A stretch of 64,000 nt of DNA from assembly GCA_012295275.1 (NCBI GenBank), contig CM022678.1:10726001-10790000 (forward strand). Reading direction: 5' to 3'. The position numbers and the translations under genes are program-made. The notes beneath the pieces are model-generated. The model was not told the DNA's origin, did not search any database, and was given only the letters and a program-made list of their open reading frames with translations. Origin of the DNA: Chrysomallon squamiferum. Taxonomy: Eukaryota > Animalia > Mollusca. Shown here in pieces: positions 1-34,705 of this stretch (positions within the stretch are counted from its first letter, which is position 1; every line of letters begins with the position of its first letter).

Positions 1-1033
1 AGGAGGCTTCACTGACACCATCACCCATGTCTCCTCCAACAGCTCCTTGATCTGGTTAGGAGCCCCATCCTATAACTCTTTAATAGCTTCTTGACATTTT
101 CTCCTTCTGGTATCAGTATCCTTGGTTAATAATAATAATAGTAATAACAACAACAACAACAACAACAATATAATAGTAATTATAATAATAATAACAATAA
201 TAATGACAGTAACAATAGTAATAATAATAATAGTATAATAATAAAAGTGAAAGTAATTCTAATAACAATAATAATAATAGTAGTAATAATAGTAACAATA
301 CTAGTAGCAGTAGTAGCAACAGTAATGATATCAAAGGTAATAATATAAGTAGTAGTTATGATAGTAGTTTAAGGTATAGTAGTATTTTTAGTAGTAACAT
401 TATAATTTTGCTTTAACATCTATCAGCTTTTTGTTGGAGATAGATAAAGATATGTAATTTTATTCTCACCTTATATACCGTTCCAAATACTTCGGAGCCA
501 ACAATTCCTCCTTGTTTCAGTTCAGATTCTTTTATCAGTTTAAGCTGGGTGGGGTCAGGTTTAACTGTCAGGGGCTGAAATAAAAACATTTATTTATAGA
601 TGTGTGTGTGTCTTTACCATCCTGCGTCCTGCATTTGTATCAGATTAAGAACCACTGGCTAACATTATGTTTATAATTTTGTACATAAAAAAAATCATTT
701 GAATGTGACATTACTGAAGGACAAATGTTTTGGTAAATATACAATATAAACATATTACATAAAAAAGTTACTGTACACAGAAATGTGAATAAAATATCTA
801 TCATGTATATATCTGTCTATAAAACAGGTAAGTGTGTGTGTATCAACAGATCAGTCTGATAAAAGAAACTCACTCAGTTTCTTCATGACCAGACATCTTA
901 GCTCTGATTGCCTCAGTCTTCCTCTTCACCTTTGCTCTCTTGGGTCAGTGATATCGAAATTCAGCCACAATACACCCAATCAGAAACAATCCCCTATAAC
1001 TGAGTTTATTACAGTTTTCTTCTTTTCATCACA
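1..1033 (-). pseudogene. EGFR: EGFR/ErbB-family receptor tyrosine kinase fragment: three degenerate exons (~874-1033 TM/juxtamembrane; 470-574 and 1-~121 kinase N-lobe)
   Basis: 470-574 is AG/GT-bounded and reads PLTVKPDPTQLKLIKESELKQGGIVGSEVFGTVYK (EGFR: PLTP...LGSGAFGTVYK, with the intron after VYK as in EGFR). 1-121 reads IPEGENVK/AIKEL*DGAPNQIKELLEETWVMVSV with frameshifts and a TAG. 874-1033 reads TVINSVIG/LFLIGCIVAEFRYH*PKRAKVKRKTEAIRAKMSGHEET. The Gly-loop is damaged (GSEVFG). Confidence 0.85.
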
Positions 1034-2510
1034 GTGAAAATAAAACAACACATTCAGAAAATCTGAAACTATGTAAAATGAAAATAATAACAATAACAAT
1101 AATAATAAAAACAAAAACAATAACAATAACAATAATAATAAAAATAATATAACAATAACAATAAAATTAAAATAATTCGTCATGTAAAAGCTGGTAACAT
1201 ATTTTCTAAACCCCAGAGCTCCACAGCTGTTTATGAGAAGGTTCACATAAAATAGCCCTTCCTGCTGATCAGTAAAAACAGACCATGTGTCAGATGGTTT
1301 CTACTCTCTCTTATCAGCATCATACCACAATCCCAGGCTTAATATTTAATACTTCAGTCTTCTCAGTGAATCACTCATTTCACTCACTGAGCAATTTGAC
1401 ATTCAACACTGAATTAACTTGTTAATTAACTATGTTTTCTGTTAATATTTTAATTATGACTGCTGTTGAGTTAAATCCTATGTTAACAAATACCCAGTTC
1501 GATTTATAATTATCTTAGTTAATAACGTAATGGGAATATAAATATCTCAGTTAATTAGTTTTCTTGTTACTCAAGTTAATTAACTCAGTTAATAAGGTTA
1601 ATCATGTTATTTAGTTAACTGACTAAGATAATAAATTAGTTGTTTCAGTTGTAAAAGTTAATTAACTCAGTTAATAAGGGCCCACACATTTAAACATCTT
1701 GGATGTTTTATTAAGGCTCAGTCTTGGGTAACAAGGTGCTTTAATGGCCACCTAACAGGGAAGATAAACACTAAATTGACAGCATTCTATATAAATCAGT
1801 ACGTAAATGTATCCACTAGACAAATAAACAGAACACAAGTTGAGGTACAAGTTAATTATTTAATTATGATATACAGGTGACTTGATAATAATACGTTATA
1901 CAATCCTAAAACATATGTTTATGTAATTTAGATTAATGATACGAGAAAGGTCATATGGGGAACCAAGACAAAATAAGAATCTGCACGGAGAACACAGTAA
2001 AACATTAAATGTTACTGACACAGTTTAATCGCACATTACACCATATTAAAATAAAAATAGACAATTGCTTACCATACTTGTCTGTAAAGACAACGTCTTT
2101 CAAAAACTTTGGTTTCCCCTCCTGACTGATCTCTCGCGTTGACTTTTTCCTGCTCTATTTAATCTCCAAGTGCTGCACTTTTATAACAACACCATGGAGT
2201 TGAAAAATTGGTGATATGATTGTGGTTACAATCTGTTAATCAATTTCAATTCAGTGATGTAAGGCAAATCATGTTATTTAGTTAACTAAGATAACCAATT
2301 CAGTTGTTTCCGTTATATCAGTTAATTATCTCAGTTATCAAGTTAATCAACTCAGTTAATTTTCACAAAAACACACACACACAGAGATTGAAAAAGAAAA
2401 TACAGATTGAAGAGTGTTAAGTAGAATGAGAGTGATAAAGATGGTAAAGAAAGAAATCAGAAAATAAAAACAAAGAGATATTTACACGCTAGAATATGCA
2501 GAACATAAGA

Positions 2511-2604
<94 letters not shown>

Positions 2605-2677
2605 GCAAAAAAAAAAATAGTCATTTAAAATTTATAAAATTCAAAAAAAAGTGTTTACTTTAATAAAAAACAATTAC

Positions 2678-2872
2678 CTGATGTAAGCTTAACTAAATCG
2701 TCAATGACAGATACACAAAGATCAGGATTATTTCCAATGTCCACATCTTTCAAAGAAAGGAGTTTTCCATGGAAACGTTCTACCAGAAACTCCAACAGCT
2801 GATTGGTTAAACAACTGCAGTTCAGACTTAATTCTTGTACAGAACTTGTGTCTGATCTGGATTCTGGAATTC
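2678..2872 (-). pseudogene. Isolated exon encoding RI-like leucine-rich repeats
   Basis: tatttcAG...GTaa bounded, 195 nt, phase 1/1, open: IPESRSDTSSVQELSLNCSCLTNQLLEFLVERFHGKLLSLKDVDIGNNPDLCVSVIDDLVKLTS (LxLxxCxL and VDIGNN motifs). Confidence 0.6.
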
Positions 2873-2997
2873 CTGAAATAAATGAAAAACAGTATTAAGA
2901 AACTTGGCAACTATATCTTAACTATCAGCAGAAAAAAAAAAAAAGCTCAGAAAATATGATAGGAGTTTCATATCAGTGGAGCCTACACTCTTAGCAC

Positions 2998-3036
<39 letters not shown>

Positions 3037-3835
3037 ATAATATGATAGAAGTTTCATGTCAATAGATATCAAATTAAACCACTATAAATAAACAAACAAA
3101 TAAATAAATAAGAGTAGTAATAGTGGTAATAGTTGTAGTATTAGTAGTAACAGTAATAGTAATAGTGATAAGTGTTAGTAGTAATAGTACTAGTAATAAT
3201 TGCAGCAGTAACAGTGATAGTGATAACTGTGGTAGAATTAGCTTGGGTTGAATAGTAGTAGTAAATACAATAAGAGGAGTCAGTAAATAACTGCAGACAC
3301 CACAGAAGTAGTAGTAGTAGAAGTAGTAGTAGTAGTAATAGTAGTGTAAGAAAAATAGCATTAACATGTGTAGAAATAGCAGTAAGACATAGTGGTAAAT
3401 AGATATATAGTTGTTGCTAATAGATTTAGTGTGTTGAAAGTCACTGTTAGTAACTATTTTTTCAGTAGTAGAATAACAGTAGTAACAGAGGTAATAGCTG
3501 AAGTAGCAATATTAGTAGCTAACTGATAATACTGGACAATTAATAATAACAATGACAATAATAATATTAATAATAACAATAACAATAACAATAATAATGA
3601 CAATAATAATAAGAAGAAGAAGAAGAGAAAATAAGAATTTGTTTTTCACAATTATACATAAATATAAAAATAATTTCTTGTTACTGGGTTTTATTCTTAT
3701 TATTATTGTTATTACTACTACTACTACTACTACCACTATTATTAGTATTACTATTATTATTACTATTATTATTGTTATTACTACTACTACTACTACTACC
3801 ACTATTATTAGTATTACTATTATTATTACTATTAC

Positions 3836-3890
<55 letters not shown>

Positions 3891-3919
3891 AACATTTTAT
3901 AAGTTATAATTAAGATTAC

Positions 3920-4042
3920 TCTCTCAGTGTCTGTTTTGTTGGTGGTGAGGCTAAGGAAGATCACTGTTGTGTTAGAACACATTGCCAAACACACAACTCG
4001 GAAAGCCTGGGGTCCAAAACTGTTTCCTGATAAATTTAAAAC
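3920..4042 (-). pseudogene. Isolated exon encoding an RI-like leucine-rich repeat
   Basis: ctAG...GTaa bounded, 123 nt, phase 0/0, open: VLNLSGNSFGPQAFRVVCLAMCSNTTVIFLSLTTNKTDTER (LxLxxNxF/I, NxxV/LxxLxL). Confidence 0.7.
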
Positions 4043-5090
4043 CTAGTTTAAAAATAAATAAATAAACAAAAATAAAGGTGTTAATAATGAATGAAAATAT
4101 AGAATACTAAATTATTCAGTAATTGTAACATTAACTAAAATAATGAAAAGATTAATAATAATGAATGTAAATATCCAATATTATGTAATTCAGTATGATT
4201 ATATTTTAAATAAATCAAAAATATTAAGAAAATTAATAACTAAATAAATAAATGATAGACAAATACATACAAACATTAGGTATACAGACAGAAGGTAGAT
4301 AGAAAGATTCATAAATAAATAAAAATAAATAAAATAAAAATAATCAGCTGTCTACTAAAACTTGTTTATCAATCATTTTTATAAATTGCCATAAACAATT
4401 CAGTGTGTTTCTAATTATGCATAATGAAGACTCGTATCAGAAATACGTTTTGCACATAATCAGCTAATAACAAATATTTTCAACACTTGTGAATTAATAA
4501 AAGCTGGTGCAATATCATGATGAAACAAATACAGCATTATCCCATTTAGTTACATCATTATGAATGAAATATTTTAGTGAAACTAGAAAAATGAAGACTG
4601 GTGAATATGTATAAGAATTATTTTGATAACAGTTGTAGTAGTGGAAGTAATAATAATACTGATGTTAATAACACTAATAATAATAGATTTTGAATAATAA
4701 AAATAACAATAATTATCTCAATATTAGTACATAATAATAATACAAAAAAATGTTTATGGTCACTAAGAGTGAATTACAAATTCAATAGTTTAAAAAAGAT
4801 AAAAGAGACACATCTGTTATCAATGATCATGAGAGATAGTAAACTACTTTTGATTGGCTAATATGTCTGAGAAAAACATTTTGATTTCACTGGCTTGTCT
4901 GTTGTACCACTGTGTTGTATTATTTCTTCAGATGAAACTGGTAATCCTTTGACACCGACTGACACAAACATTTTCTTTAGTTCATCAATGGTAATTTAAA
5001 TTAGGTGTTTTCTGTAATGTCTGTTTCGTTCATCACTCACCGAATTTTGTTACAATCATAGCGATTGGTTAATTATAAATCCCAGATCTG

Positions 5091-7401
5091 CTATAATGAA
5101 GTCTCATTGGTCAGTGGCCTAACAGTGTCTATCTCAAGCACTTCAATTCTTTGTTTGAGCAGTTTTATCTGTCTCATGTAGTGATCTGTCATCCCCTGTA
5201 ACTGAGTCTCAGGTTTCTTCAGCTTGCTCTGGTACTTCTTCTTTGCTTTATCAAACGCTGATATCAAGACACTGGAGGCAAAATAAATAAACAAATAAAT
5301 AAAATTAGTTTATGGTATTAAGGCACCATGGGGGAAAATAAAGGAAAATAAAGATATAATATTAGATAGGTCACTTATATTACAGAAATGCTAATGCTAT
5401 CAGTACAAAACATAACAAAAAGAAGATAAAAATTAGATGCAATAATTTATGTTAGAAATATATAAATGTAACTCTTTCAACTGTAACAAAAATGTAACAG
5501 TTTATCCTCTAACTCTCTCAATTGTAACAATTTATTCTGCAACTTTCAACAGCAACAAAATGTAACAATTTATCCTCTAGCTTTTTCAACTGTAACAAAA
5601 TGAAACAATTTATCATGTAATTCTTTCAACTGTAACAAAAATGTCACAATTTATTCTATAACTCTTTCAGCTGTAAACAAAAATGGAATAATTTATCCTT
5701 TAACTATTTTCATATAAACTTTAAAAAAAGTGTATTTACTAACAACTTAACAGTACTTTTTTAAAGAATGTAACAATTTCATGCAGTTAATAATTTAACT
5801 GTTACTCTTTCAGAGAAAAGCTTAATGCAGAAATTATTAACAGAAGCCATACTATATAATTGAAGGAAAAAGCAGTCTTAATAATTAAGTTTTGTGTTTT
5901 AATTATACCTACAAATAAAAATGCAAATATAATTATTTTAATATTTATGCGGAGTTACCTTTCTTTTCAACTTCTCCCTGTCATCATTAATATATTCAAT
6001 AAGCTACATAGCTGTGTAAGTTCTATTTCCTGTCTGCCTATCTGTTTTTGACTTTCAGCGTTGTCTAAAACAAAAACAAAAAAAAAAAACAACAAAACAA
6101 AAACATTTATAATTATTCTCGGTTTTAATGTTGTGTATACAGTGATTTAGTAATTAAAGAAAAAAAAAACATGAAGCGAATTTTAATTTTATTTGTAAAT
6201 TTAATTATATTTTTCTCTTCTGATCAAATTAACTGATTGAAAGAATATCTAATTTTAATTATATATTTATTTGTTACTTTTTTTAAAATTCCTTTCAACA
6301 GTAAGTAAATAAGAAAAAATATTAATTTTAATTACATATTTATTTGGTACTTTTCTTTTTAATGCCTTCTAACAGTAAGTAAATGAGAAAAAAGAATATT
6401 TAAATTCATTACCTGGACTCGCAGTCTGGGAGCCATTTGGATTATTCTTGTTGATACTTCCTCCATCATCTTCAAACTCATCGTCTTCTCTACAAAGAAA
6501 GGAAAAAAAAAACTAATTATCAAATTTCTTTACACTTTCTGAAATTTGGTATTTTCAACAAATTCCTAGAAATTATTTCTTAGTCTTTCATTAAACACAG
6601 TGAAGAACAGCAAGCTAAAGGTGTTGTTTTACATCTGAAGAATGACTGACGACTCATACAATGAAAGAAAACAATGGTTAAAGGTCTTCAGATATTTCTG
6701 GAATTTCAGGTTTTCAGGAATCTTTCCTTGTGCATTATAAACAGTGAGAAACCAGCAAACAAATGGTATTATTTAAAAATAAATAATGACAAGCCAAAGC
6801 TATGTTTCATTATGTGACCAGATATATTATATTATTGCTTTCATCATTGCATTAAAAACAGTGAAGAACTGCAAACTCACATTATATATTATTTAATAAA
6901 GACCACTGACCTGATGACGTTAATCTGCTGTCTGTCTGTTTTCTTCATCAGCTCTGCAATGACGTGTGAAGTTCAGTGACGCGTCACTCGTAGCGTTCCG
7001 CTGTCTGGTCAACTCTGTCATCGAAGTCTTTCTGAATCTTCTCAGTCTTAGTGACAACAAACAATCAGATTTCATAATAAACACATACAATAATAATTAA
7101 ACAGACAGGATAAGAAAATTATTTATTAATGGTATACGCAGTTATAAAATTAAAAAAATAATAATAATAAAATAATAGTACATAACAAAATATTCGTTAA
7201 CTGTAAATGCAATTATAAAATAAAAAATAATAGCTTTGCTTTTAGTTAGAGTTAGTTAAATTGTTTTAAAAGTTTATTAATTTTAATTTACTATATAAAT
7301 CGCTATATATCAATATTAATATTTGTGGGATTCTTTGAAATATTAAATTACCTAAATTTTTAAAAATGATTTATTAATGGTATATGCAATTATAAAATTA
7401 A

Positions 7402-7453
<52 letters not shown>

Positions 7454-8150
7454 TATTATTATTATTAAACTACTTAATTAAAAACAATAAAATTTAAAAA
7501 TATTTAGAATCACTAAAATATTTGAAGTTTTGAATGTTTCTTGTATATATCTGTGTCTATTAATATATTTGTAAATCAAAAACATACAGACTAAACATTC
7601 TCAATATTTAAAATCAACAGACTTATTTTTAATGAATTTGATTTTGTATATATTGTATTTATTGGAACTATGTATTTATTCTGTGTTTTAGTGTCTAAAA
7701 CATCAAAAATAAGTAATCACATAAATACATAAATATAACCAAATAAGGAAGCAAGTAAATAAATAATAAAACTTTTTTACATTTAAATTTAATCATCACA
7801 TTAACATAAATATATTTCTAAATCTTTACCAGAACGATAGCCTGAATAACATTAAATCATCACCAAGAGTTATTCCAAAACATGTTGTTTTCTAGACAGG
7901 CTATCTTCTTATTACTGTTACCAGAATAACAACATTAAAAGTCAGTTGGAGATAAAATTTCAGTTTAATACCAGGATAAAAAATTTTAAAACTAAAAACA
8001 AAATTAAAAAAAAAAAAAAAAAAAAAATTCTTACCTGACATTTAGTCAGGTTTTTTTCCCTAACTGATCTCTTTCAGCTACTACATGTGCTAACCTGTTG
8101 TTCAGCTCGATTATCTCCCCTTTCAGAGAGGCCAAGGCCATCTGGTGAAG
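5091..8150 (-). pseudogene. MCC: MCC (colorectal mutant cancer protein)-like unprocessed, internally deleted pseudogene; exons 8035-8150, 6911-7046, 6413-6489, 5959-6064, 5091-5271
   Basis: Exons read LHQMALASLKGEIIELNNRL (MCC LHSAALASLKGDIVELNKRL); RYE*RVTELH/VIAELMKK (MCC RYEERITELHSVIAELNKK); REDDEF; QEIELTQL../IEYINDDREKLKRK; and terminal ISAFDKAKKKYQSKLKK...LLKQRIEVLE...RPLTNETSL* (MCC C-terminal PDZ motif NETSL). All are AG/GT bounded. One in-frame TGA and at least 3 frameshifts. Confidence 0.9.
5470..5720. repeat. ~40-bp minisatellite, ~6-7 degenerate units
   Basis: Recurrent aactctttcaactgtaacaaaaatgtaacaatttatcct. Confidence 0.8.
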
Positions 8151-8722
8151 CTGGGGAAGAAAAGAAAGATCTTTGAATTGTTTGTGGTTGTAACCAAATT
8201 AAAACATATTTTTTGTGAATTATTTGTGATTCAATCCTTTTTATCATTTCTAAACCTAATTAATGTAAAGACACTGATAATGAAAATAATAATAATAATA
8301 ATTTTATAAATATTGGTGAGAATTAAATAATCCAAAAGACAATAATAATATAAAAATATATTATTCATTTCAATTATTAGACATCTCTGTTACCTGCTAA
8401 ATTAAACACTGGAAACAAAATATAATAAAAATTTGTTACTGAATAATTAATTTTATAAACAATTTTCAAATTTAATGCAAGAACAAAATGTTCTGTTCTG
8501 TACTTTATTCAACAACTGAAGAATCCACTAGATTACAGTGACTGCAAGTCTCCACCAATGAAATTCCATCAATCTAACACGTCATTTGCCATATTGAAAT
8601 GTAGATTCGAGTGGGTGAATGTTGCAACCAGCAAATAGTAAACAAATAAAATAAAACTTAGTTACACCTTTCATCATCAAAACTCAAAATCATTTTAGTA
8701 ACAAACTACATAACAACCTTAC

Positions 8723-9773
8723 CAGACACAGAATCAGCTACTCCACCAGTCTAAACACAATCAAATTCAAACACAAAACTAAACTTTAGCTGTGGAATTT
8801 CTGAAACCATGTAACATTACTTATTTCTCTGTCCACATTATTTCAGTGAACATCTAATGCTATATGACACATTCAATGAATTAAAAATTGAATTTACACT
8901 CAAAAACATCTTGATAGAAACAGTGAAAAACTGAGAGCCAAACTTTAATTCAATCAAATAAATAGACACAAATGTTTAGTTAATTAAATTCAAAACATAA
9001 CATAAAATAGCACAGACACATAGGTAAAAAAAAAAAATATATATATATAAAATAGCACACAATAACAAACAAAACAAAAAGCAATACACCAATACAAAAT
9101 AATTGTATCAATTATTTAATTACTAGATTAACTGACTCACCAACTGATAGATTTCTAACACAGAACTTCAGAACATATTTTAAAAGTTCCTCATTTTCTA
9201 GACACAAGGAAGTAAACTGGTTCTGGCTGGAGTGGGCTGTTTGGAATGTGAACTTTCTGTACTGACAAGTCAAACTGATGAAGACAATTAGCTTTTTCTT
9301 AAAAATAAAAATGAAAACAAAATTTAAAATAACAAACAAAAACATACTGCAATATAAAATAAATTAATCTAAGAATTAATAAAATATCCTTAAAATTATA
9401 TCACTTAATATATAAAAATTACATCACTTAATATATAAAAATTACAGATTATTCAAATGAATTCTTACCCTGTGCAATAGCAGTCTGTTGATACTCCCTC
9501 CAAAGTGAAGATTTAGTCTCACATGCAAAAAGATTTTCAAATCATTACCTTTGAATCCTGTGACTGACTCAGAAAAAATTAATCATAATCTTGAGGAAAA
9601 TGTTTCAGAAATTGAACTATCCTTTTTCTGTCTTCACATGTAAGGTATGTGAATTAATTTTCTTCTGCCAGATTTCTTTTCTCTCTCGGAGTTACCCCAT
9701 TCGTGCTGTGAGTTTGTTCTGACTAATCCTGTAAAAAAGCAATAAAAGATATAAACAGACACCAGTAACCCCC

Positions 9774-9822
<49 letters not shown>

Positions 9823-9992
9823 TCAAATGTGCTCTATAAAAATGAGGGAGAAATTACAAATTAATTGCCGCCTAAATAGGAAAAATATTAATAAAAAAAA
9901 CATACAAGTTCTCTCTGCTTTGTTCATTGGAATGCTTTGAAGAACTTCCAGAAGTATCATATCTTTTTCAGCAGCAAAACAAAAAAAAAAAT
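8723..9992 (-). pseudogene. Unidentified exon-like relics (about 9906-9992, 9469-9728, 9141-9275, 8723-8751)
   Basis: GC-richer islands, each bounded on the - strand by polypyrimidine-AG and GTAAG/GTGAG/GTATG. No continuous ORF and no donor gene recognised. Confidence 0.45.
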
Positions 9993-10371
9993 CTGAAATC
10001 TTATAATACTTACACAGTGGTAAATTAGTTGAAATAACTGTCCTAATTCAGATGATAACATTTTTTATTTTATAAAAATCATTTTAATGAGTCTTGTTTA
10101 TCCAGTTAAAATATATTACAATTGATTAAACATAAAATTTCTGATTTCCAAATTTAATTCAATAACTGTCTCTAACATGAATAAATAATATTACTCTAGA
10201 AGAACTGACTTTTTTCTTCTTCTTCTTATGAATATGTATTACTGACATTTTCAACTTGAGACAAATGTCTTTCAAGTTGATGATTATGGACCTTATGTCG
10301 GTTCGAAATTAAAAAAAAATTGATGTTTAGTCGCGCAAAAAATTGTTTTTGGATCATCTTATAACACTATT

Positions 10372-10476
10372 AATAATTTTATAGCAAATATTTATTTCAC
10401 ATAAAAGTTTGTTCATAATTCGATAAATTGAAAGTATCGGCTTACCTTAATTTGTCAACATATAAAAAGAAGTACG
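10372..10476 (-). promoter_or_regulatory. Dispersed ~130-bp module with splice donor, copy A
   Basis: Reverse complement atgttgacaaattaagGTAAGccgatactttcaatttatcgaattatgaacaaacttttatgtgaaataaatatttgc aligns with 11150-11250 and 22505-22600. The promoter/first-exon role is inferred. Confidence 0.6.
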
Positions 10477-10572
10477 AAATTTCTTTATTAATTAAAATAG
10501 CCCAAAATAATGTAGCCCTAGTTATACAAATCAGCTGGTAAGACATTTTCAAACAAACCTTGACAAAAATGG

Positions 10573-10673
<101 letters not shown>

Positions 10674-10907
10674 TTATAGTATTATACGCTTGGATTTTTC
10701 AAAAGAAACAAAAATTAAAGGAAAGCAACATGGAATGACAGTGAGTAAAGTTTAGCGTGTGTCAAAAATAAGAAAATCAATGACTTTCCTCTATAAAATA
10801 TGCAGGTGTTCAACTTTTCTTTTTAGTAGTCTTTCTTTATTTCTTTATTTCTTTTATTTTTTATTTTTATTTATTTTTTTTCTGGTTAAGTAATCCTACC
10901 GGAATTG

Positions 10908-11133
10908 AAAACGAAAAACAATTGCAAATACATGGTTATAGAGTTATCTTCCATGATAACTAGTTCCGTTAACCAACCGATAATAATTTAGGTAACGCTC
11001 AAAAAGTTCGCTAAATGTTTTCGTTGGCTTCTCTTTAGCGAATTAAAGGTGGAATTCAAAAGGAAAAACAATAGCAAACAATTAGCTTCAGAGTTATCTC
11101 CTATGATAACTTGATCCGTTAACCAACCGATAA
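10908..11133 (+). promoter_or_regulatory. Direct ~75-bp duplication (10908-10984, 11059-11133) with GTTATC-N6-GATAAC palindrome and CCGTTAACCAACCG
   Basis: gagttatcttccatgataactagttccgttaaccaaccgataat vs gagttatctcctatgataacttgatccgttaaccaaccgataat. The regulatory role is inferred. Confidence 0.5.
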
Positions 11134-11144
11134 TCCTTTAACTT

Positions 11145-11290
11145 AGTGTTTATAAATAGATGTTGGCAACTATGGTAAGCAGATATGTCTAACTTATGGA
11201 ACTATGGGCAAACGTTTTATGTGAAATTAATATTTGCGATAAAATTATTAGAAAATTATTATTTTGTATTATAACTTATAGAAAAAACAG
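11145..11290 (+). promoter_or_regulatory. Dispersed module with splice donor, copy B (inverted relative to copy A)
   Basis: gtgtttataaatagatgttggcaactatgGTAAGcagatatgtctaacttatggaactatgggcaaacgttttatgtgaaattaatatttgc; donor at 11175. Confidence 0.6.
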
Positions 11291-11690
11291 GTCAGAACAT
11301 CTCAGAAAAATGTCCACAGATCTTGGATTCAAAAGATATAGTCACTCCTGAGACACCACATGTAACACTTAATGTAACAGACGGCATAGATCATAGACCC
11401 CACTGTGATAGCCGTAACCAAGCATTAAATCCTCGTAGACATCTTCCCGATAATGAGAACCAGTTTTGTAAATGTAAGTGAGAATGTTGATCCAGTGATC
11501 ACTTCTCCCCATCTATTTACTTGTGGTCCTTTTATTGTGAATATGACAGCTGATGCAGAATGAGAGACATCATCACAAGATGTAAATGCTGCTCCTGTAA
11601 GACGCTCATCTAGGTTACGAGCTGGTCAGCATGGTAATCCTCATAACCTACCCCTCTCTGCAGTTGTTCTGGAAAGTATGGCAACATTTT
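11290..11690 (+). mobile_element. Gypsy-type LTR retrotransposon relic (pol C-terminal tail)
   Basis: About 11578-11665 reads DVNAAPVRRSSRLRAGQHGNPHNLPLSAV, matching the RRSxRxxAGQHSNPHxLP tail that follows integrase in metazoan Gypsy elements. Upstream sequence is degenerate. Confidence 0.6.
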
Positions 11691-11829
11691 ATTTGGGAAA
11701 TCTTTAGAATAGATTAACCATTGGTTCCTATTCTATAGAGCTTAGATTATGTAATGTTTAAAGTGCTAGCAAGATATATTAACATGACTCCTTCCTATTG
11801 GGAGATTTTATTAGCACTTGGAACTGTAT

Positions 11830-12530
11830 TGTCATGTGACATGACCATATATGGTAACTACTGGCTGGCGTTTTTGGAGGTTCCATTTATCCCGTACTGA
11901 TAATTAGCGTACCAAAGCTTTGTGAGTACATCTCACGTAAGGGACATAACTCTAATCTATGTTTGTGAACACATATCACTAAAGGGAGATTACTCTAATC
12001 GATGTAATTTTTAATTTGCTTAATGAGTACATCTCACGTAAGGGACATAACTCAAATCTATGTTTGTGAACACATATCACTAAAGGGTATCACTCTAATC
12101 GATGTAATTTTAAATTTGCTTAATGAGTACATCTCACGTAAGGGACATAACTCAAATCTATGTCTGTGAACACATATCACTAAAGGGTGATAATCTAATC
12201 GATATAATTTTTACTTCGCGGGGTAAACTCCTCCCACTTCCGGTGACATGTCATGGCTTATGTCAAGTGACCCATATTATATATAAAGAACGTGATTTTT
12301 CCACAATCGTAGATCGAATCATGGCGTATGGCGTTTTCGGAGGATAATTAGCGTACGTAAGCTTGGTGAATACATCTCATGTAAGGGACGTAATTCTAAT
12401 CTATGTTTTATGAACACAAATCACTAAAGGGAGATAACTGTAATCGATATAATTTTTACTTTGCTCGGTGAGTATATTTCACGTAAGGGAGATAACTCTA
12501 ATGGATATAATTTTTACTTCGCGGCGTAAA
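11830..12530. repeat. 100-bp tandem repeat array (units start 11924, 12025, 12125, degenerate at ~12366 and ~12470), likely the internal array of a non-autonomous element
   Basis: Unit gagtacatctcacgtaagggacataactc(t/a)aatctatgtttgtgaacacatatcactaaagggagattactctaatcgatgtaatttt; rich in AAGGGAGATAACT-like motifs. Confidence 0.85.
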
Positions 12531-13913
12531 CGGCTTGCTCTGATTAGAACGTTAATTTTTTTCAAGGTTCATGGTTCAAGGTCCACAATCTTTCATAGAT
12601 GAATCTGGAATCGGAAAGTACTGCCGAGATTCGATAACATGATCTCACACACATGAACATAATGACAAGAAACCCTAAAGTTTCAACTTGGTTCTGTACC
12701 TTCACAAGCTGTGTTTGAGCGGGGCAAACAGCCGGCGTGCGGGGGTAGGGGGCGTGCGTACGTACCTAACCCCCCGGTCCGGACCCGAATTTGAATTATA
12801 CTTAATATTTAATTCAGTACAATCATTCGTTGTTGTTTTTTTTATTAAACTATTGTGTTTTTTTATTCCGCTGTTAAATCTTCTATTATGTATATAATGG
12901 GTTTTTTTATTATTATTAGTTATTTTTTGTTATCTTCCCTGAATAATTAAACAGGATATCCCATACACAATAAACAATTTTTTTTTTTTTTTTTAATTTC
13001 TTTAGCACTTAACTCAACGAATTAAATGAAACAGAAATCTCAATTCGAAACAATATCATTATTATTATCATTTTTATTTTCACATTTCAAAATTTGTTCT
13101 GTTGTTGTTAATGTTGTTATCCATTATCATCGATACATTTGTTCCTGTTATTAATGGTCAACAGAGTTATTTCCCTTAGACCACCTCGTCTATGAAATTG
13201 ACTAATTATTATTAGTAGTAGTAGTAGTGGTAGTAGTAGTAGTAATAGTAGGAGGAGTATCTCTATTTGTGCATTCTTAATTTATTTCATTTGTTTAAAA
13301 TATTTCTTTATTAAAAACTTAATATTTCTTCATTCGTGCTATTCAGAGTTAAAATGAGATCAAGAATTTAAATTTGTTAAGAAATTCCGTTTTGATACGA
13401 GAAAATTTCTATATGTTATTTATTATGATTAGAGAAACAGTGATTTGGGTTTCACTACGACTGTAAGTTTGTATGGTTTCATAAAAACTTCATTTCACTG
13501 TAAAAAATGTAGGATAAAAATTTGAAATACATGTAAATACTGTTTTTCAGCCGTTTCATACTGATACGTTATTTAAATTTCACAAATATAATGATTTCTA
13601 GAGCGTGGTATCTAACATCAATTCAACTGTTTAGAAGATTAAGTTTGTGTGTTTGTGTGTGTGTGTGTGTTAGCGCATGTGTCTGTCTTTCATCTATCTT
13701 TAATTTTTGTTTGTTTTATTTTTATTGTTGATACTATTGCTAACATTGTTATTTTTGTTATTATAGTACATAATTATTACTATTTTTATATTGTTGTGAT
13801 TGTTAATATTACTGTTATAGCTGTTGCTTTTGCTGTTGGATAACTTTGCTTTAGGTAAAGTTTTTAATTTTGTGTTGAGAGAAGAAAGCAAGTTAGAGAG
13901 AGGCAGGAAGAGA

Positions 13914-14539: not shown

Positions 14540-16114
14540 TTTTTGTTTTTTAGCCAACTAATCAATGACTTCTAAGATCAAGCATATTCATCGTCTTTTC
14601 AGATTTGTATCATAAGAATTAATGTCATATTTTTCACCACTGTTTGAAATACTTTGAAATAAACATCATTTTCCCTATCATGTATTGTCTGAATGTTTTT
14701 ATTTTTCTCACTCATTAGTATCATTTGAAATATTTGTCTTGTTTAAGACTGCTGCAGACTTGACTGTACTTGGTGCTGTGTCTGGTCAAACATTTTTCTC
14801 ACTGCTGTGACTGACTGAAAAAAGAGGCAGAACTGAATCCAGCATCTGTTTCATGATTTCTGAATCAGTCTGGCATCAACTATCAAAACTTTGATAGCAT
14901 AAACTCAAATCTTCATCAAACTTGGCCATGGATTTTCATTTCTGCTTTCACATGTCTGTGCACTGAACTCCATCTATAAATAATAATAATAAGAAGAAGA
15001 AGAAGAACGACAACAACGGTAATAAATATAGCAAGAATAATAGTGAAAATATCTACTGCTTTAATATTAATACTAATAATTTTTATTACAATAAAGTAAC
15101 ACACTCTATACATATATTTGCTGTTAAGGCTAATTAATTTACTGCTTTAAAACTTACTTATCTATATTTTGCATCAATTTAATTGAAAATATTAAGTAAC
15201 TATTGTTCATTGAAATGGGTAGACTTTTCTTTAAAAATCACTTATTAAGAAATATTAGAAATCTGACTTCCACTGTTACATCAATGATACACGAGAGACA
15301 GACTTTCACTGAAATTGTTTCATTCAGGATGATATTTCTACTACCTGAATCAAAGTGAATAATTATTTGTTGTCTACCACATCAAGTCTACTATTTCAAG
15401 TCAGTGGAACCTCAAGTCTCAGATCCTAGGTTGCTTAGGTTTGTAAATTGTAATCTTTAATGTAGAGATAATTATGTACTGTTATTTATCATATCCATTA
15501 TTTATAAAAAATGAATTTATGTAGCTGTTCATGATCTTGCATGTGACAGCTAGTGGTAACCATTTTTCGAATGCAGTACTTGGTCACAACCACAAACCTC
15601 TATCAATTAACCGAACAGTGTGAAAAGGAAATGTCTAAAATTGATGTAACTGGAAAAATTAGAAGCATTTTGTTTGGTTTATGATTCAGACATGAGTTTA
15701 TATGTAGCAGATACAGAACACCAATAAAATACTTTCCTTTCCAATGAATTATTAATAAATTTTATTTAAGAAAAATAAATGAAGTTCCATAAGCCTATTG
15801 CAAAATGTGGTCACATGGCACTGAATAAAAATGGAGGCAAAATGTACTTCCAAGTGATAATATAAAAAATAAAAACAAATGTAGACTAACTTTAGTAGAA
15901 AACAGTGATTCTTTCACGTATCACCAGCCTGCATGAACCATGTGTGTGTGTGAAATCCTAACAGTCTTCTGGATTCTGTTATCTGCAACCTGTTGATGAG
16001 TCCTTCCATCAACACTCTACCAGTCAAAGTTATACATAAACTAGTCTGAGCAGCTACACCAACAGTGACACCTGTAAATATTAACAGTAAATCAATTTAA
16101 AATATAAATTCTTA

Positions 16115-16146
<32 letters not shown>

Positions 16147-19100
16147 GACACTAATATACACACACTCACACACCTGCAACAAAATATCTGTTTTTAGATT
16201 CTGTGTAGAAAACAAACATTTATTTGTGACCATCCAGCACAAAATGGGTTGCTTGTCATAAAATTTACATTTTATGTTTTTAACTTTTCTAGTTGAGCTT
16301 TGTCTTAGCAGTGAAAATTATATAAAAATCTAAAATACTGTTCCCAAGATATTAGTCATTGAACACTCTAACTTTCCATAATGAGATTCTTGTAAAACAA
16401 TTAAATAATAATGATTATCATTTAAGCATTTTCCATACCAACAACTATACCATATTAATAGGTTCAGTAAAGAATGTCTTGATGTTTGAAGACAGTATCT
16501 GTTTTGTTTTTGTACAACAGCTTATTTAAATAAAAAAGAAATTAACAAAATATTAATTTTTGACTGAATGCATTAAACTAGAAATACCTGATTCAGCAGA
16601 AGTAATTTAATACTCATTAAACAACATAAAAACATAAAATTATAAAAGGAGATGTTGATTGAGAAGAAAAGACATCACCACTATTTAAAGTCTTCAGCTG
16701 TATTTTTCTGAATTGTTTATCACACATTAAAATATTTCTGTATTTATAGAATAATCTCGTATTAATGCTTCAACATTTTCAGCATTACAATCATTTAAAA
16801 TATTATCTCACTGTGCAGAATTCCAAGCTTTCACAAAAATCTGTGCTTGTAGCTGAAAGTTAGTTTGGAAAATGTGTGCACTCTTTTGACTTCTTTACAT
16901 GATGTACTGGTATTGAGGAATGAGAGGAAGGCTGTCATACAATCTACAGTTTACTGCCCTTTATCTTAATTTCATTACTGAAACTACACAATGTGATATC
17001 TGACTCATATGCTGGCTAGTAACATTTGATGTTTTAAAAAAATTAACATACTATTGTACTATTTAATTTCTTATTATTTTAAAAATTATTATTATTATAA
17101 ATAATCAAAAGATGTGCTGATAAAAAGAACTGTCAGTGTGTAAAATAAAGTTTAAGTTTGTGAATTAATAAAAGAAAGAAACAAAACTCAGATGAACTGG
17201 TCACCTGTAGACTGCACACACAACACACCAGCTCTGCATGTCAGAGTACGAGTCTGGAAAATTCTCCCTCATCTTCTACCATTAGCACTTGTGTGACCTT
17301 TTTCTCTTTTCTAAAAGTGTGAAAATGTTTTGAAAACGAAATGAAACAAAAATTAACTTAGAATGTTGTTTAGTTTTTGTTTCAAGTTTTGTTTCTTTGT
17401 TAACTTTTTTTTTTCTGTATTTGTGTGAGTTGTTTCCCTTTACAATGATTAACACATTATTTTTATTATGTACAAGCAGTTTCAAACTTAAATATTGCAA
17501 CTTTTTATCCTTTAATTAATAGTTTTACATTAAAGGGAAGTGCAAAAGATTAATTATAAAATTGTTTACTTCCTCAAAAATTAAGAACTAAAATGACTCA
17601 CTTTCATTTCCAAACATGAACAAAATATTTGTTTTCACTAAAACTTTATAGAGCTGTCCCACTATTAACAGTTGACTCTAAAACCCAATATATTATAATT
17701 TAGAAAATTTACTTTTCTTTTCAAAAACCAGTTACTGTCATGAACACAATTAAAAACTAATTATTTGCTTGGCCAGGTATACCCTTTTAAATGAGATAAT
17801 AAGAATAACAAGAAAAAATAATAAATATAAATATATCTTTGTCAATAGAATAACATTAAAACTACTTTTCTCAAGAATCTAAATCAAATACAACAAGGTG
17901 TAACAAAAAGGGCAGTACCTGATGTAAATGAAGATTTTATAACAGAGCTGGGATCCTTCATCCACTTTGTTCAGATTGTAGTCAGCCAATGTTTCACCAG
18001 AAATCTTCACAGTCAGGTAGACTTAGTGTGTCTCACACCAGAGAACTGTGTGAAATTACAAAACTATGTGATATACTGAAATTTAAAAAACAATCATATT
18101 TAGTCATCATCACAAATCTTTATAAGAATAAAAATAATAAAATCAAAATAACAATAATGATGATGATGATTAAAAACAGATAAATAAATTATATTAATAA
18201 TAATAATGATGACAGTAAGAAAAAACACAATCAACTGAAATCATAAATAAATAAATAATCCATTTAATGAAGATTTTAAAGATACATTTTTTTCATGATT
18301 TTATCTTTTCATTTTTCATTATTTTTCCCAAACCTTCACAATTTTAGCCTACTTAATTATTGCATAAATACATTAAATTCCTTATAAATGTTATAGAGAA
18401 ATAAAACTTTTGCCACATACCAGACGAAAGTAGTTTCAGCTATTTTTTCAGATAATCCTCAGAGGTTCCTTTTTGATAAAACAAAATTGGCATCTACGAA
18501 AAGAAAAACCCCAGAAAAACAAAATTGTATCTGATCATTCTTTGAAGCTAAATTTTATATCAAACAACATTTATAATTAAAATAAAACATATATTTGTGA
18601 TACTTAAGGATTGTTATTCATATAAACTAAATAAAAATATAAATAAAAACTAAAAAAACAAAAACAACTAACCTCTGAATCCAGTGAAAATGCAGGTGAC
18701 ATCACATCACCAATAGCAGATAAAAATGCTGAAGAAGGATTTCCACTTTCAGCAACAAGCAGTCAGTTTCTGAAATACTGAACATAGAAAAAACTGAGTT
18801 GTATAAACATATAACAAAATACATGTATAAAAATACAATAAATGGTTAGTTAAAAACTTTTATCTAATTATATATTTCTGTACATTAAATATTTAAAAAA
18901 ATATAAAATTTCCTGACAATTATCTATTATTTGAAATTTTAGAGATCTTACATTACTTTATTTTTCATATTACAGAAACACGGACCAGGAAATTCTAATG
19001 CTGTATAAATGAATAAATACACATATTATGTAATGTATCAATACATTTTCTTTGACGGAATTTCTTACACAACCCCAGTTGGAAATCAAGTTCAGATTAT

Positions 19101-19890
19101 TTGCATATAATGGATGCATCATGAATATTCATGATGCAAAATAAATCAGTTTCTTAACGACTATATCAATTATCAAGTTTTGAACTAAGCCACCTAAAAC
19201 ATATCAACATTCTGAATATAACAATATCTAAGTCTTAATCTTATATGTGGCTCTTACTACAGAAATGGGGTTTATAGTCTTTCTGACAAGCCTTGATCCA
19301 GTTTCTTCAGTACACTCCTGTACCTCATCATGCAGCTTGAGGACTTTGTAACCTACTTAAACACTACAAACTCTGATCAGACTGTGTGAATGTACACTCT
19401 GATCTGCATCTACAATGGTAAGCCCTGTTTCTGCAGTCAGACCCACATATAATAATAACAACCCATTCTTCCAGTTAAAGGACACAACTGATTCATACGT
19501 TTGTCAACTTTACACAGCCAACTTTACAATCTCATCAACCAGTGATAGTGAGTCTTCTGATTTCTCACTGATCAGAAAGTCAAGTGGAAAGCTTTCCCTG
19601 CAGCACAGTGTATTCATTCTTCCTAAAACCAATCACTTGTTCAAGATGAATCTAACATGGTCAGTTTGTCTCGACATCCACAGACAGTGATGTGAAACAC
19701 CATTAGTAAACATGGGATTTGTTCATTTACACACACAGCAATGTCAGACTCAGTCTGCTAATACAAAGACTCCTGGAAGAAGTTTATTCAATAAAATACT
19801 ATCAGAAACATGTTTTGTTGTTGTGTTTGTATAATGTGCAATTCTGATGTTTAAATAACAACACTTGTTGCTTTTGTGGTATCTGTCTGA
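14540..19890 (-). pseudogene. Chain of unidentified degenerate exon-like blocks (about 19260-19886, 18673-18769, 18421-18493, 17919-18075, 17205-17310, 16812-16855, 15891-16071, 14540-14972)
   Basis: Coding-like composition, AG/GT boundaries on the - strand, and scattered stops (e.g. LLVAESGNPSSAFLSAIGDVMSPAFSLDSE; VYLTVKISGETLADYNLNKVDEGSQLCYKIFIYI). Donor genes not recognised. Confidence 0.5.
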
Positions 19891-20019
19891 AATAGGAAAA
19901 ACACAGATAATTTAATTTTTTATTGTTTTTATTACTAACATTGTTTACTGTTATATCTATATCATTGCCATTTACTAATACAAATGAATGTTTGTTGAAA
20001 AATCAGTATCTTTTCAATA

Positions 20020-20375
20020 TAGTAAATTGTGTTTTATCTGGATTTCTGTGTCGCCAAATATCAACTAAATTATAATTATAAATAACTGACTGTAATTCAT
20101 TACTACTTTTCATACTGAAATTTTTTATTATTAATGCCTACATCTATATTAGGATCTCAAATTACATTAAAATCTCTGTATTTTTAAAATCCACAAATTT
20201 ACATAATCCTTTAAAAAATAAAATTCTTTCTTCAATATTATTAGGCACATATACAGTTATAAAACTATATTCATCATCATCTATTTTAGTATTAACTTTT
20301 AAAATCTTGCCTTCAGTGTCACAATTATTAAAGGTAAACTTATAAGGATTGTGAAATATAAAATTACCCACACAA
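20020..20375 (-). mobile_element. L1/Tx1-like non-LTR retrotransposon APE endonuclease fragment
   Basis: CDTEGKILKVNTKIDDDEYSFITVYVPNNIEERILFFKGL, followed after a break by ELQSVIYNYNLVDIWRHRNPDKTQFT; these are typical L1-clade EN motifs. Confidence 0.8.
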
Positions 20376-20462
20376 AAAAAAACCCATTCCTTATCTTAGA
20401 TATTAAGATTCATAAATTTACTTTATGCTAAGAAATATATAAGAACACAAACTCAACTTCAC

Positions 20463-21670
20463 CTGCTCAGATTTGTTTCTCTTTGCAATGGCAGCAGTAC
20501 AAACTTTATTTAACCAGAAAATAATTGTATCCTCTGTGCCTGATGGAAGTTCACTGGATGCGTTAAAAGTTTTTTAATTCTTTGCTCAGTATGCTGCATG
20601 TAAAGACAGAGGTCTTATTACATTATATGATAAATTATACAAAACATGCACCCAAATATCATTCTCCTTCCCTATCTCTCCATTCCTTCAGCCTCTCCCT
20701 CTTTCTCTCATACATTCATAGATTTGCTTGTTTAACTCTAATTATTCTCTTTCTTTTCAGCTATGTGTTAATAAACAAGGTAGAATGATGAATGTCTTTA
20801 AATACTTTCTTTATTGGCAGCATTCTGAAATACTGACCTTTACAAACGGATCTTTTAAAGTCTGAAACCATTCAATTTTAATAATAAAATTGTATTTAGA
20901 TAGGTAAAAACATCAATCAGTATATACACTAAAACTGAATATTTTTACCATATATTTACCATTTATCATCTAAAGTATAGAATGAAGAAAATAATCTTTA
21001 ACAGAGCCAAACAAACTCATTTTAATAAAATAAGATTTAAAATGTTAAGTAATTAACAAAATAATAAAAAAAAATAAATAAAAATAAATAAAATTAAGTA
21101 TAAGTATATGTATGAGTATAAATTATAAAAAGAAATTAAGAAATAAAACAACAGAATTCCTGATGGCCGGGACAGCAAATTCTACCAAAACAACTGCACT
21201 GGCATATGTCAACATTAGCGCATCAATTAGAGCTGTATGTGCATATTAAAAAATAATAATAAATAAATAATAAACAGTTATAGTAAATAGCTAATACTTC
21301 TTTATTATTAGGATTTAAATTGTACTTTTATCAGTTACTGGACTGTTCACGCAATATGGGCTGTGGGATATTCTCAGTGTACATTGTTATTAATAAATAA
21401 TTTTTATGAATAATGCCTAATCATTATAATGATAATAATAAAATAATTAACAAAACAACAGCAAATAAGTGATTATTATTACGATATTTTATAATCAATA
21501 AATTATAAAGAGTTTCTACAGAACTTATTTTACTCTCTAATACACAAAAATAAAATAAAAAACTCACATCTCAGAATGGTGCAGTCTGCATAAGAATGGT
21601 TTCTTAACAGGTGATTCATCCTTCTCCATGATGTAAATTCCCTTTCTTAACAGAATAATAATGCCGTGAC
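20463..21670 (-). pseudogene. CAMSAP: CAMSAP/Patronin fragment: three consecutive degenerate exons (21568-21670, ~21155-21245, 20463-~20590)
   Basis: RKGIYIMEKDESPV (CAMSAP1 RKGIYVMESDDTPV); AHTALIDALMLTYASAVVLVE (AHMAMVDALMMAYTVEMISIE); TFNASSELPSGTEDTIIFWLNKV (TFSASKELPYDLEDAMVFWINKV). Frameshifts and stops are present, and no other CAMSAP exons were seen. Confidence 0.85.
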
Positions 21671-21823
21671 CTACGAAAAATAGCAATACCAATAGTAAAT
21701 ACAATATATATTATTTTTTGAAAGAAGATGATATTGTTTCAGATAAATGCATTTTTCTCTGCTTATTATCGTTTGTGAATGTCATAATAAATTTATTTGC
21801 ATGTGAAATTGCCAACACACACA

Positions 21824-21903
<80 letters not shown>

Positions 21904-21927
21904 AATTCTATTAAATTGAATACTCAC

Positions 21928-22640
21928 CAAGTAACAGTTACCGAATTAAAAATAAAAATAATCTGGCTGTCAAACATCAGTTCATACTGTTTTGAAAAGC
22001 GTAGTATACATTCGAACCCGTGTATGTTCGAAACACTGTGGTTTATCGAGACTGGTCTCGGCCTGACTTTATTTAGTATTTAAGAAGTAATTAATTTGTT
22101 TATTCTCACAAAAATTATTATAGAATTTGTAGAAATTAATTCTGGTTTCCGACCTACATGTGATTTCCTGTCTATTGTCGCAGCCACAGTATAACTTGTG
22201 GTGTTTGATGAAGTCATTCTCTGTCAGATTATCTCAAGTATGTATTTACAATTAACTTAGATTTTACAAATCAGGACAATTATAATGTATTCATTTCTGA
22301 GCTAAAAATGAAATTAAGAAAAATAACCATAATAATTATTAATATTATTAATATATATATACAGAGGACTCGAATGTCTCCGTCTATTCTGCCGAGACGA
22401 TCCGAACGGTCACGATCAGTTTTACGATACTGGTTCAGCGAGACTCGTGGTTTTGTTTATCAAGACTACAGATAACGCCATGCCTATCCGGTCTAGAAAG
22501 TTTGTGTTTATAAACCGATGTTGGCAAATTAAGGTGAGCCTATAAGTCCAATTTATCGAACTACGAGCAAACCTTTTATATGAAGTAAATATTTGAGATT
22601 AATACTGACTCTTATGTTATATCTTATAGAAAAAAAGGCG
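21928..22640. promoter_or_regulatory. Putative bidirectional promoter hub containing module copy C (22500-22640, +)
   Basis: CpG-enriched relative to its flanks. Outward-facing donors: - strand GTGAGT at 21922-21927 and + strand aagGTGAG at 22534. Exon chains lie on the - strand to the left and the + strand to the right. Confidence 0.5.
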
Positions 22641-22883
22641 ACTATATCATAATCTTTTTACCATCCCAGTCGCTGAAACGGAACTTAGTCGCAATTAATT
22701 CTTAAAAATTGTGACTAAATAATTTATAATTTTAATATTTTCAGCAATTTGTAAATTTTTTTTTTTTTATTTTTTGGTTTCCAAATGATAAATGATAAAT
22801 TTTATAATTTTGTTTAAATTTTTTTTTTTTTAACAATTATTTATTAGGGTTATCAATGATAAATGTAATTTATCTATTTACAG

Positions 22884-25800: not shown

Positions 25801-26650
25801 ACACACATATATATATATATATAGTGAATTGAATGATATCAAAGCAACTACAGTGAAATCAATGAAATGTAATGATAAGATATACACTGAAATGAAATAC
25901 AATGAATGAAATTAAATGAAGTGAATGAAATGTAGTGTGGTGCAATGAAATTGATTGAAATACAATATATGAAATGAAATAATAATACAATACACTAAAA
26001 TAAATCAAATACTATGAAATACAATAAATGAATAGAACTGAATTGAACTGAAATAAATGATTCACAATGAAATAAAGTGAAATGAAATACAATACAATGC
26101 TAAATTAAAATGATTTTGTTCATGGAATAAATGGCTTTTTTACAGTAAGTAAAGAATCATGAAAATAATTAAGTGACAACCCATCCCATTTGAATCATAT
26201 CAAACTTCATTGTACATGTAAATTGTATAATATTGTTTATACAACTCTGAATATTACTTTAATTTTAATATTTTTTTTTTTTCAGGTTCTATTATCGTAA
26301 GCTTGTTTTGAGAATGAAAGAAAATATGAGAAGTGACATTGATTCTAAGTGACTTGTGTTTATCTCCAAGTTCTTCACATTTTCTCACTGTACTGAACAA
26401 ACTAAACAGAAGAAACATCAGAAGATAAAATATCTTCACAACAAATACGATGAACTGAACTTGTTATGTGGACTGCACTTACTGAAGAATTTATAAATCT
26501 GTGAAACTGTGATTTCAGATTCAGAGTGTCATTCATGCAAGATACAGTCAGACATAGACCAGTGGACAGAATGTTTGGACCAGACAGTCAAGTGTGAAAA
26601 AGAAATTATTTTAAAATGTCTGATGCAGAAATCCTTGATTTACTGCTTTA
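22884..26650 (+). pseudogene. Calcium-binding EGF-repeat (fibrillin/mucin-like) gene relic plus unrelated exon relics, copy 1
   Basis: EGF exons 23667-23798 (DLNEYTSTD...CTNRISGFTCSCPAGKKLENHQTTCV), 24040-24207, 24981-25097 (CDSAAVNSSCEQGCRV...CLCRN/TLNSDNKTCS) and 25620-25721, with lost cysteines and frameshifts. Flanked by non-EGF exon-like blocks at 22884-23065, 23413-23515, 26286-26460 and 26519-26620. Confidence 0.8.
25850..26105. repeat. Degenerate (AAATG)n pentamer array (paralogue 49105-49370)
   Basis: Runs of gaaatgaaat/aatac. Confidence 0.75.
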
Positions 26651-28000: not shown

Positions 28001-28039
<39 letters not shown>

Positions 28040-28066
28040 TAGAGAGAGAGAGAGAAGCAGATAGAC

Positions 28067-28147
<81 letters not shown>

Positions 28148-28388: not shown

Positions 28389-28450
<62 letters not shown>

Positions 28451-29309: not shown

Positions 29310-29398
<89 letters not shown>

Positions 29399-34700: not shown

Positions 34701-34705
34701 TTATT

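Follow-up and report, generated by a model that had tools for sequence, protein, structure and literature searches.

A core-duplicon-like patchwork of co-oriented, intron-bearing gene fragments, tentatively proposed, in the genome of the mollusc Chrysomallon squamiferum

Our analysis of a 64,000-nucleotide stretch of the Chrysomallon squamiferum genome (the window; CM022678.1, 10,726,001-10,790,000, forward strand, with all coordinates below given as window positions) revealed a chain of co-oriented exon fragments from MCC, a leucine-rich-repeat (LRR) gene of the RI type and EGFR on the minus strand of positions 1-10,446. This chain, hereafter chain 1, retains introns and splice ends and starts with a short head that recurs elsewhere in the window; its 3' end lies beyond position 1, outside the window. 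As judged from sequence comparison, it is probably one of tens of diverged copies, 5-15% apart. We read it, tentatively and at slightly less than an even chance, as a core-duplicon-like patchwork that was assembled through template switching and block duplication and whose head starts a spliced non-coding transcript.

A minus-strand chain of MCC, LRR and EGFR fragments

Thirteen exon-like blocks with defined borders lie on the minus strand of chain 1, ten of which could be assigned to MCC (five), an RI-type LRR gene (two) and EGFR (three). An AG acceptor is present in 13/13 of the bordered blocks and a GT donor in 12/12 of those testable, the acceptor AG at 993 being weak and chosen by us; five further blocks are partial (10227-10191, about 9520-9469, about 2170-2073, 1751-1680 and about 1390-1185, all minus strand). 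An earlier note on this DNA had placed about 16 blocks here, all on the minus strand and most with AG/GT sites, from at least three unrelated genes that contribute one to five exons each. Place, strand and genes are borne out, with the tally now standing at 13 bordered and 5 partial blocks. Its statement that most exons carry stops or frameshifts does not hold, as these break 5 of the 10 assigned exons.

Within each gene, the exons stand in native order, and introns of 300-990 bp are retained between consecutive MCC and EGFR exons, which does not fit a chimera of retrocopies and agrees with the capture at the DNA level that the note had proposed. Specifically, the match to a shorter Haliotis MCC isoform starts exactly at acceptor 8150, so the border there is a native intron. 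A model joining 16 blocks (1,980 bases) holds no ATG frame longer than 70 codons, and the predicted product of the chain is therefore non-coding. A Pfam six-frame scan of 18 frames over three chain 1 stretches gave no real match, none of 32 short frames searched exceeded the cut-off, Rfam returned 0 matches, and the metagenome and viral collections searched held no related loci.

Identity of the five MCC exons to Haliotis MCC ranges from 41 to 78% (E 0.008 to 1e-19); they account for about 207 of its 1,000 residues, in three pieces separated by two large internal deletions. By protein match, they lie on the minus strand at 8035-8150 (amino acids 192-230 or about 199-236 of the Haliotis protein; frameshift near the end), 6911-7046 (241-283; one stop and one frameshift), 6413-6489 (about 283-315; open), 5959-6064 (422-459; frameshifted) and 5041-5271 (939-1000; open to the natural stop at 5091, with a donor 50 bases beyond it). 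The first deletion is a jump of about 105 codons behind the third exon, where a 9-base microhomology may have been used as the switch point. The 9-base word at 6417-6425 (minus strand), near the end of that exon, recurs in an RNA loose end at 6050, which carries MCC sequence from just upstream of amino acid 422. The second deletion skips about 480 codons, and a 40-bp tandem repeat at 5466-5712 (minus strand), located by repeat search and an RNA loose end at 5959 (run X9, introduced below), multiplies there an acceptor together with the beginning of the MCC exon that follows.

Beyond MCC, an open minus-strand exon at 3920-4042 matches PDB entries for LRR proteins of the RI type (best E 7.7e-9). 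A second open, LRR-like exon (2678-2872, minus strand) was recognized by language-model features only, below threshold; sequence searches gave no match for it, and a word search for its full-length relatives scored 0 of 51 candidates. The EGFR portion starts at the membrane segment, with a transmembrane/juxtamembrane exon (874-993, minus strand; one stop) that a database search left without a match and that is assigned by its RNA joint to 574 and by its position. It is followed on the same strand by a kinase N-lobe exon (470-574; E 2.8e-8), open and with an altered glycine loop, and by the next kinase exon (1-120; E 9e-5), which carries stops and a frameshift and is truncated by the window edge; a word search for full-length relatives of the EGFR exon scored 0 of 9 candidates. 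Relative to human EGFR, exon 470-574 lacks three residues: five residues separate EPLT from the proline that matches next in the human peptide (PMC4247952), and two do so in the window and the RNA.

Three parts of the chain remain without an assigned gene. The 5' module (8481-10364, minus strand) holds AG/GT-bordered exons at 9728-9549, 9297-9141 and 8750-8723 plus partial blocks, and its exons had no match in a 1.84-billion-protein search (0 hits), the Atlas or the PDB. A very high-copy module (1565-2337, minus strand), set between diverged direct repeats at 1565-1673 and 2234-2337, contains an exon pair (donor 2072, acceptor 1751), and an exon-like block without clear splice ends lies at 1185-1390 (minus strand); neither the pair nor the block matched anything in short-frame or PDB searches.

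Copies, transcripts and strand

Eleven runs were surveyed, nine of which contain part of chain 1, and four were aligned to positions 1-12,700 at a likeness of at least 85%: DNA runs X1 and X5, from two studies, and RNA runs X8 and X9, from a single study, all as assembled contigs. Chain 1 appears to belong to a mosaic family, because thousands of mostly 90-95% alike DNA contigs align to it and their depth steps module by module. Specifically, 3,204 contigs of X1 and 5,005 of X5 aligned, only 446 and 669 of them at least 99% alike, with the largest class at 90-95%; all 30 bins were covered, introns included, and the two depth profiles agreed (Spearman 0.87, 25 bins). Median depths in X1/X5 were 340/1,034 for the EGFR part, 335/1,122 for the MCC part and 1,152/3,649 for the 5' part, whose bins extend to 10600, and bin 1697-2120 reached 4,264 and 17,030. 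Each of the five 5'-module bins was deeper than each of the nine MCC bins in both runs, and depth differs 3- to 13-fold between modules. Of three near-identical pieces in X1, two have depths of 14-18 and one of 105, and in X5 such pieces have depths of 48-122; on this scale, the modules come to about 20-70 times single depth. Since summed contig depth is, as the alignment tool states, not a copy number, we claim tens of copies and lay the weight on the module depth steps common to both runs.

These steps bear on whether chain 1 arose simply by duplication and decay of a locus at which MCC, an LRR gene and EGFR were neighbours. Such a duplicate would explain the native exon order inside each gene; it becomes barely credible in view of the depth differences, the survival of so few MCC residues in three pieces, an EGFR portion that starts at the membrane segment, and a single head that starts unrelated chains, as described below.

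The RNA contigs cover the head, and over the chain the RNA/DNA ratio tracks exon bases per bin (Spearman 0.62-0.81, 25 bins). Its median in the 14 exon-rich bins is 3-10 times that in the 8 exon-poor ones, and the ratio falls to 0.0002-0.007 in the two deepest repeat bins. This tracking of exons, together with the near-absence of the deepest repeats, argues that DNA carry-over is not the explanation, whereas parental mRNA may be, as the 85% threshold permits it to align onto chain exons. High ratios also occur at the 9728-9549 exon and the LRR exons. Among the matches listed, beyond which lie a further 134 joints and 1,889 loose ends, the exon end at 874 is connected to the exon start at 574 in two X8 contigs, and their loose letters match 558-574 (17 letters) and 875-885 exactly. 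Because this RNA shares the three-residue-short form of the window, it would derive from a copy of the family if, as we infer, the intact EGFR of the snail resembles other ErbB proteins at this point.

One reading that concerns expression only, and is compatible with any origin, is that the family is silent and the RNA contigs come from intact genes plus library DNA. The permissive threshold, two MCC loose ends that look parent-like, the occurrence of low-depth intronic RNA contigs and the reliance on two RNA runs of one study all lend it some weight, but the short form of the spliced EGFR joint, the raised ratios at 9728-9549 and the LRR exons, and the scarcity of the deepest DNA repeats in RNA make it unlikely in our judgement. 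Chain 1 likely gives rise, from its head, to a non-coding RNA that is spliced. A transcript across genes is predicted because the donor 50 bases past the MCC stop is followed by no AATAAA or ATTAAA between 5091 and 4201 (890 bases past the stop) and by an acceptor at 4042.

With regard to strand, 5/5 modules share one orientation as judged by an excess of T over A and a shortage of AATAAA, with T>A in 16/20 bins, and over the whole of chain 1 AATAAA occurs 18 times in sense vs 55 times in antisense (p 1.7e-5). Three control regions are also skewed (8/21, 16/26 and 17/30). Blind counts by strand of donor motifs (22 vs 13, p 0.18) and acceptors (4 vs 5) were not significant; splice-motif counts by strand reached significance in no chain and stood at 13 vs 0 in a repeat-rich control region, and blind splice-site scoring of 1-10,500 gave seven minus-strand exons and one plus-strand exon, too few for a test. 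The co-orientation stressed in the earlier note is real, but it involves only three assigned donor genes, and control regions are skewed too. That splice sites outlast reading frames, as the note had supposed, is no more than suggested by 19/19 intact dinucleotides, an outcome with a chance of 0.14 at 5% and 0.02 at 10% divergence.

The head module, candidate carriers and neighbouring chains

The head module (10365-10490, minus strand; 95-130 bp, CpG-rich) comprises a first-exon end whose splice donor lies at 10445, followed by about 80 bp of intronic sequence. It recurs on the plus strand at 11140-11264, where its part 10371-10464 matches 11157-11250, and at 22498-22602, where it starts a plus-strand chain of EGF exons (chain 3), so that the head begins chain 1, chain 3 and a third spot in the window. 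The three copies are 79-85% identical, keep the donor GT in 3/3 cases and are followed by three different downstream sequences; upstream, their similarity fades gradually, with no common TC end seen among these three copies only. Six RNA contigs of X9 exit chain 1 at 10365, and DNA contigs link 10365 with 11264. The observed/expected (o/e) ratio of CpG is 0.14-0.31 in five chains, 0.82-0.95 between chains and 1.0-1.4 at the heads. In invertebrates, gene bodies are methylated and promoters unmethylated, a pattern that the low-CpG chains and CpG-rich heads resemble. A spliced-leader RNA gene was considered for the head and rejected, its copies being 79-85% alike and without a match in Rfam; by eye, no shared Sm-like motif follows the donor.

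Two of the heads (10371-10464 and 11157-11250, 81% identity) form an inverted pair that faces outward from chain 1. If the head were a terminal inverted repeat (TIR) with its partner beyond position 1, chain 1 would be the cargo of a Pack-type TIR transposon, which would agree with the inverted arrangement and with the sharp head boundary at 10365. The pair faces away from chain 1 rather than around it, however, the far ends of chains 2 and 3 lie within the window and carry no head copy, and the median cargo of animal Pack-TIRs is 224 bp, with 4/281 cases multicopy (PMC8277862); we rate this origin as highly improbable.

Chain 1 might instead be the cargo of a non-autonomous Helitron or Helentron with a captured promoter, first exon and donor, like HelibatN3, growing by 3'-end bypass into successive genes; this is the main rival to our reading, one that we take seriously and yet consider doubtful. 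The head anatomy (first-exon end, donor, start of intron 1) fits HelibatN3 (PMC4224331, PMC4778049), depth in the 5' module is 3-4 times that in the MCC module, introns are retained, and very high-copy repeats with internal tandem units adjoin the head (10780-11140 and 11866-12530); maize Helitrons are reported to hold exons of up to 12 genes. On the other side, a scan of the 64 kb for a hairpin plus CTRR-T returned two sites, neither with CTAG nor at a chain end (0-1 in 10 shuffles). The canonical hairpin, about 11 bp before CTRR with insertion between A and T, was found neither at the ends of chains 2 and 3 nor at module joints, and these ends and most module joints also lack a GC-rich palindrome. 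The 12-15 bp subterminal inverted repeats and 3' palindrome of Helentrons and HINEs (PMC4067079) were sought in 10680-11160 and 11820-12820, and neither of these two neighbouring repeats has such a pair, the search yielding one internal 9-bp pair only and unpaired palindromes at 11831 and 12776. Further, depth does not fall steadily from 5' to 3', as the LRR and 1697-2120 bins exceed MCC, and no Rep/helicase was present among the frames scanned.

The flank search for Helitron or TIR ends proposed in the earlier note thus found none at chain ends within the window. These missing ends fail to dispose of a Helitron, because Helitrons can end without a hairpin (PMC4778049) and the far end of chain 1 lies outside the window. 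The note had posed cargo of an element and a spliced transcript as alternatives; they are not exclusive, as multicopy DNA and fragment-type spliced RNA were both seen, although carrier ends were not.

Among the neighbouring chains, chain 2 (14650-21930, minus strand) consists of about 11 exon-like blocks, none with a match, and starts at a donor at 21927, with a CpG o/e of 0.18 and AATAAA counts of 14 in sense vs 44 in antisense. Chains 2 and 3 diverge across a CpG-rich interval (21940-22700, o/e 1.36) that resembles a two-way promoter. Chain 3 (22534-26700, plus strand) has the head, an exon without a match and then decayed calcium-binding EGF exons (Pfam EGF_CA); its second copy (45781-50100, plus strand) has no head, carries one extra exon (about 46330-46450) and begins in a 60-bp tandem repeat. 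A fourth CpG-poor stretch (42090-45400, minus strand) also holds exon-like blocks, for example at about 42900-42795.

Positions 23147-42070 recur at 45781-62044 as a 16-19 kb tandem duplication of 72-91% identity with a shuffled middle part, its break lying just past the chain 3 head and first exon and the 60-bp tandem repeat standing at the joint. The DNA upstream of the EGF-exon module differs between its two window copies. Between the copies of chain 3, AG and GT are retained in 5/5 shared exons (chance about 0.05 at 13.6% divergence), and mismatches number 54/603 in exons and 310/2,277 in introns (p 0.002), with two of the five exon borders off by one base; this difference is not proof of selection, because AT-rich introns misalign and mutate faster.

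The duplication also carries two copies of a TRIM-like RING and NHL-repeat gene (34150-36239 and 56750-58988, plus strand). Each has a single intron and an internal repeat that varies; the second exon is open in copy 1, and copy 2 is frameshifted near 57600. An 84-codon CpG-rich frame without a Pfam match, perhaps a retroelement remnant, occurs in both arms (41648-41902 and 61621-61875, plus strand). Nearer chain 1, the repeat at 11866-12530 is built of 43/58/100-bp units with DNA depths of 55,000 and 410,000, more than 100 times that of chain 1, and likely exists in thousands of copies. A decayed coding-like stretch directly behind the plus-strand head (11300-11700, plus strand) gave no Pfam match; we presume a resemblance to the end of a Gypsy pol gene. 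Finally, exons of an MRM3-like rRNA methyltransferase, the later ones seemingly frameshifted, lie past an assembly gap (62082-62281) at 62939-64000 (plus strand).

Proposed mechanism and comparison with known systems

The most likely route to such a patchwork, still at slightly less than an even chance, is that template switching during replication joined intron-bearing MCC, LRR and EGFR pieces behind the head and trimmed them, as suggested by short repeats, tandem or direct, where modules meet and where MCC sequence is deleted (5466-5712, 1565-2337 and 45500-45787). Block duplication would have multiplied and spread the result, with modules also moving separately, a step to which the depth steps and the differing upstream DNA of the EGF-exon module point. 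The head, being CpG-rich and retaining its donor, may act as a promoter, from which transcription would run across genes and yield spliced non-coding RNA. Sense pieces would then persist, because antisense ones, with a threefold load of poly(A) hexamers, would end transcription early, or would give RNA that pairs with the mRNA of the intact parents.

Several observations weigh against this reading. First, no joint between exons of different genes, of the kind that the earlier note had looked to RNA to supply, and no joint from the head was found among the matches listed, which include within-gene joints. Second, the EGFR RNA joint has one G more than the donor of this copy yields and is therefore not from this exact locus, and the MCC loose ends at 6050 and 5959 run into sequence without a counterpart in the window, which likely makes the intact MCC gene or fuller copies the source of part of the RNA signal. 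Third, any one run holds at most 39% of the sampled words of chain 1, and many window letters, the 1-base gap at 6002 that marks an MCC exon frameshift among them, occur in no aligned contig; for these reasons, this copy may be private, belong to another population or contain assembly errors. Fourth, chain 3 has no AATAAA skew (23/19), and parent genes can pass on both a low CpG content and a strand skew. The limit on depth as a copy measure and the existence of hairpin-less Helitrons, both given above, belong here too. A more far-reaching version, in which a head without transposon ends gathers sense pieces as a self-growing exon-collector family and stays spliceable by selection as the code decays, with tens of chimeric RNAs acting on the intact EGFR, MCC and other parents via small RNAs or as decoys, seems to us improbable.

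The core-duplicon-like patchwork that we favour is reminiscent of primate core duplicons such as LCR16a/NPIP, in which a transcribed, over-represented core stands beside varying gene-rich pieces, introns are retained and fusion transcripts rarely keep the reading frame (PMC7419210). Chain 1 likewise consists of pieces from several genes with their introns, and its over-represented part is a head in three places together with a 5' module deeper than the MCC module, depth being a rough measure. The primate core, however, is about 20 kb long and codes for a protein under positive selection, whereas the shared part here measures about 0.1 kb (2 kb if the 5' module is counted in), and the search for a core-encoded protein family yielded only the 70-codon frame of the 16-block model and 5' exons without relatives. 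Pieces of 1-4 kb and copies 5-15% apart also set chain 1 apart from the primate blocks.

Other parallels lie with transposons. In bat HelibatN3, as at the head, a promoter, first exon, donor and part of intron 1 are multiplied and spliced to downstream exons, with the 5' pieces highest in copy (PMC4224331, PMC4778049); these elements have TC/CTRR ends and usually splice into intact host genes, whereas the search of the window yielded no such ends and the exons behind the head are pieces of several genes, themselves present in many copies. Gene-fragment Helitrons of maize, like chain 1, unite intron-bearing unrelated pieces that are mostly dead as code and sometimes co-spliced (PMC4528327), but they have defined ends, while for chain 1 a carrier is hypothetical. 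In animal Pack-TIRs and FoSTeST, microhomology template switching captures gene DNA and many chimeric transcripts arise (PMC8277862); their cargo is short, nearly always single-copy and enclosed by TIRs, in contrast to more than 10 kb from several genes in tens of copies with no enclosing TIRs seen.

Gene-piece mosaics behind a shared transcribed core are thus already known from primate blocks and from maize and bat Helitrons. In the literature searched, outside which lie most subscription papers, no such family is described in a mollusc. Because its tens of copies are 5-15% apart, with several chains per 64 kb, this genome could serve to test why pieces share a strand, whether by mechanism or by selection on transcription, and whether splice sites persist after loss of the code; such loci also inflate annotated gene counts for the EGFR, LRR and EGF-domain families. 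Taken together, chain 1 works like core duplicons and like bat and maize Helitrons but matches the full definition of neither.

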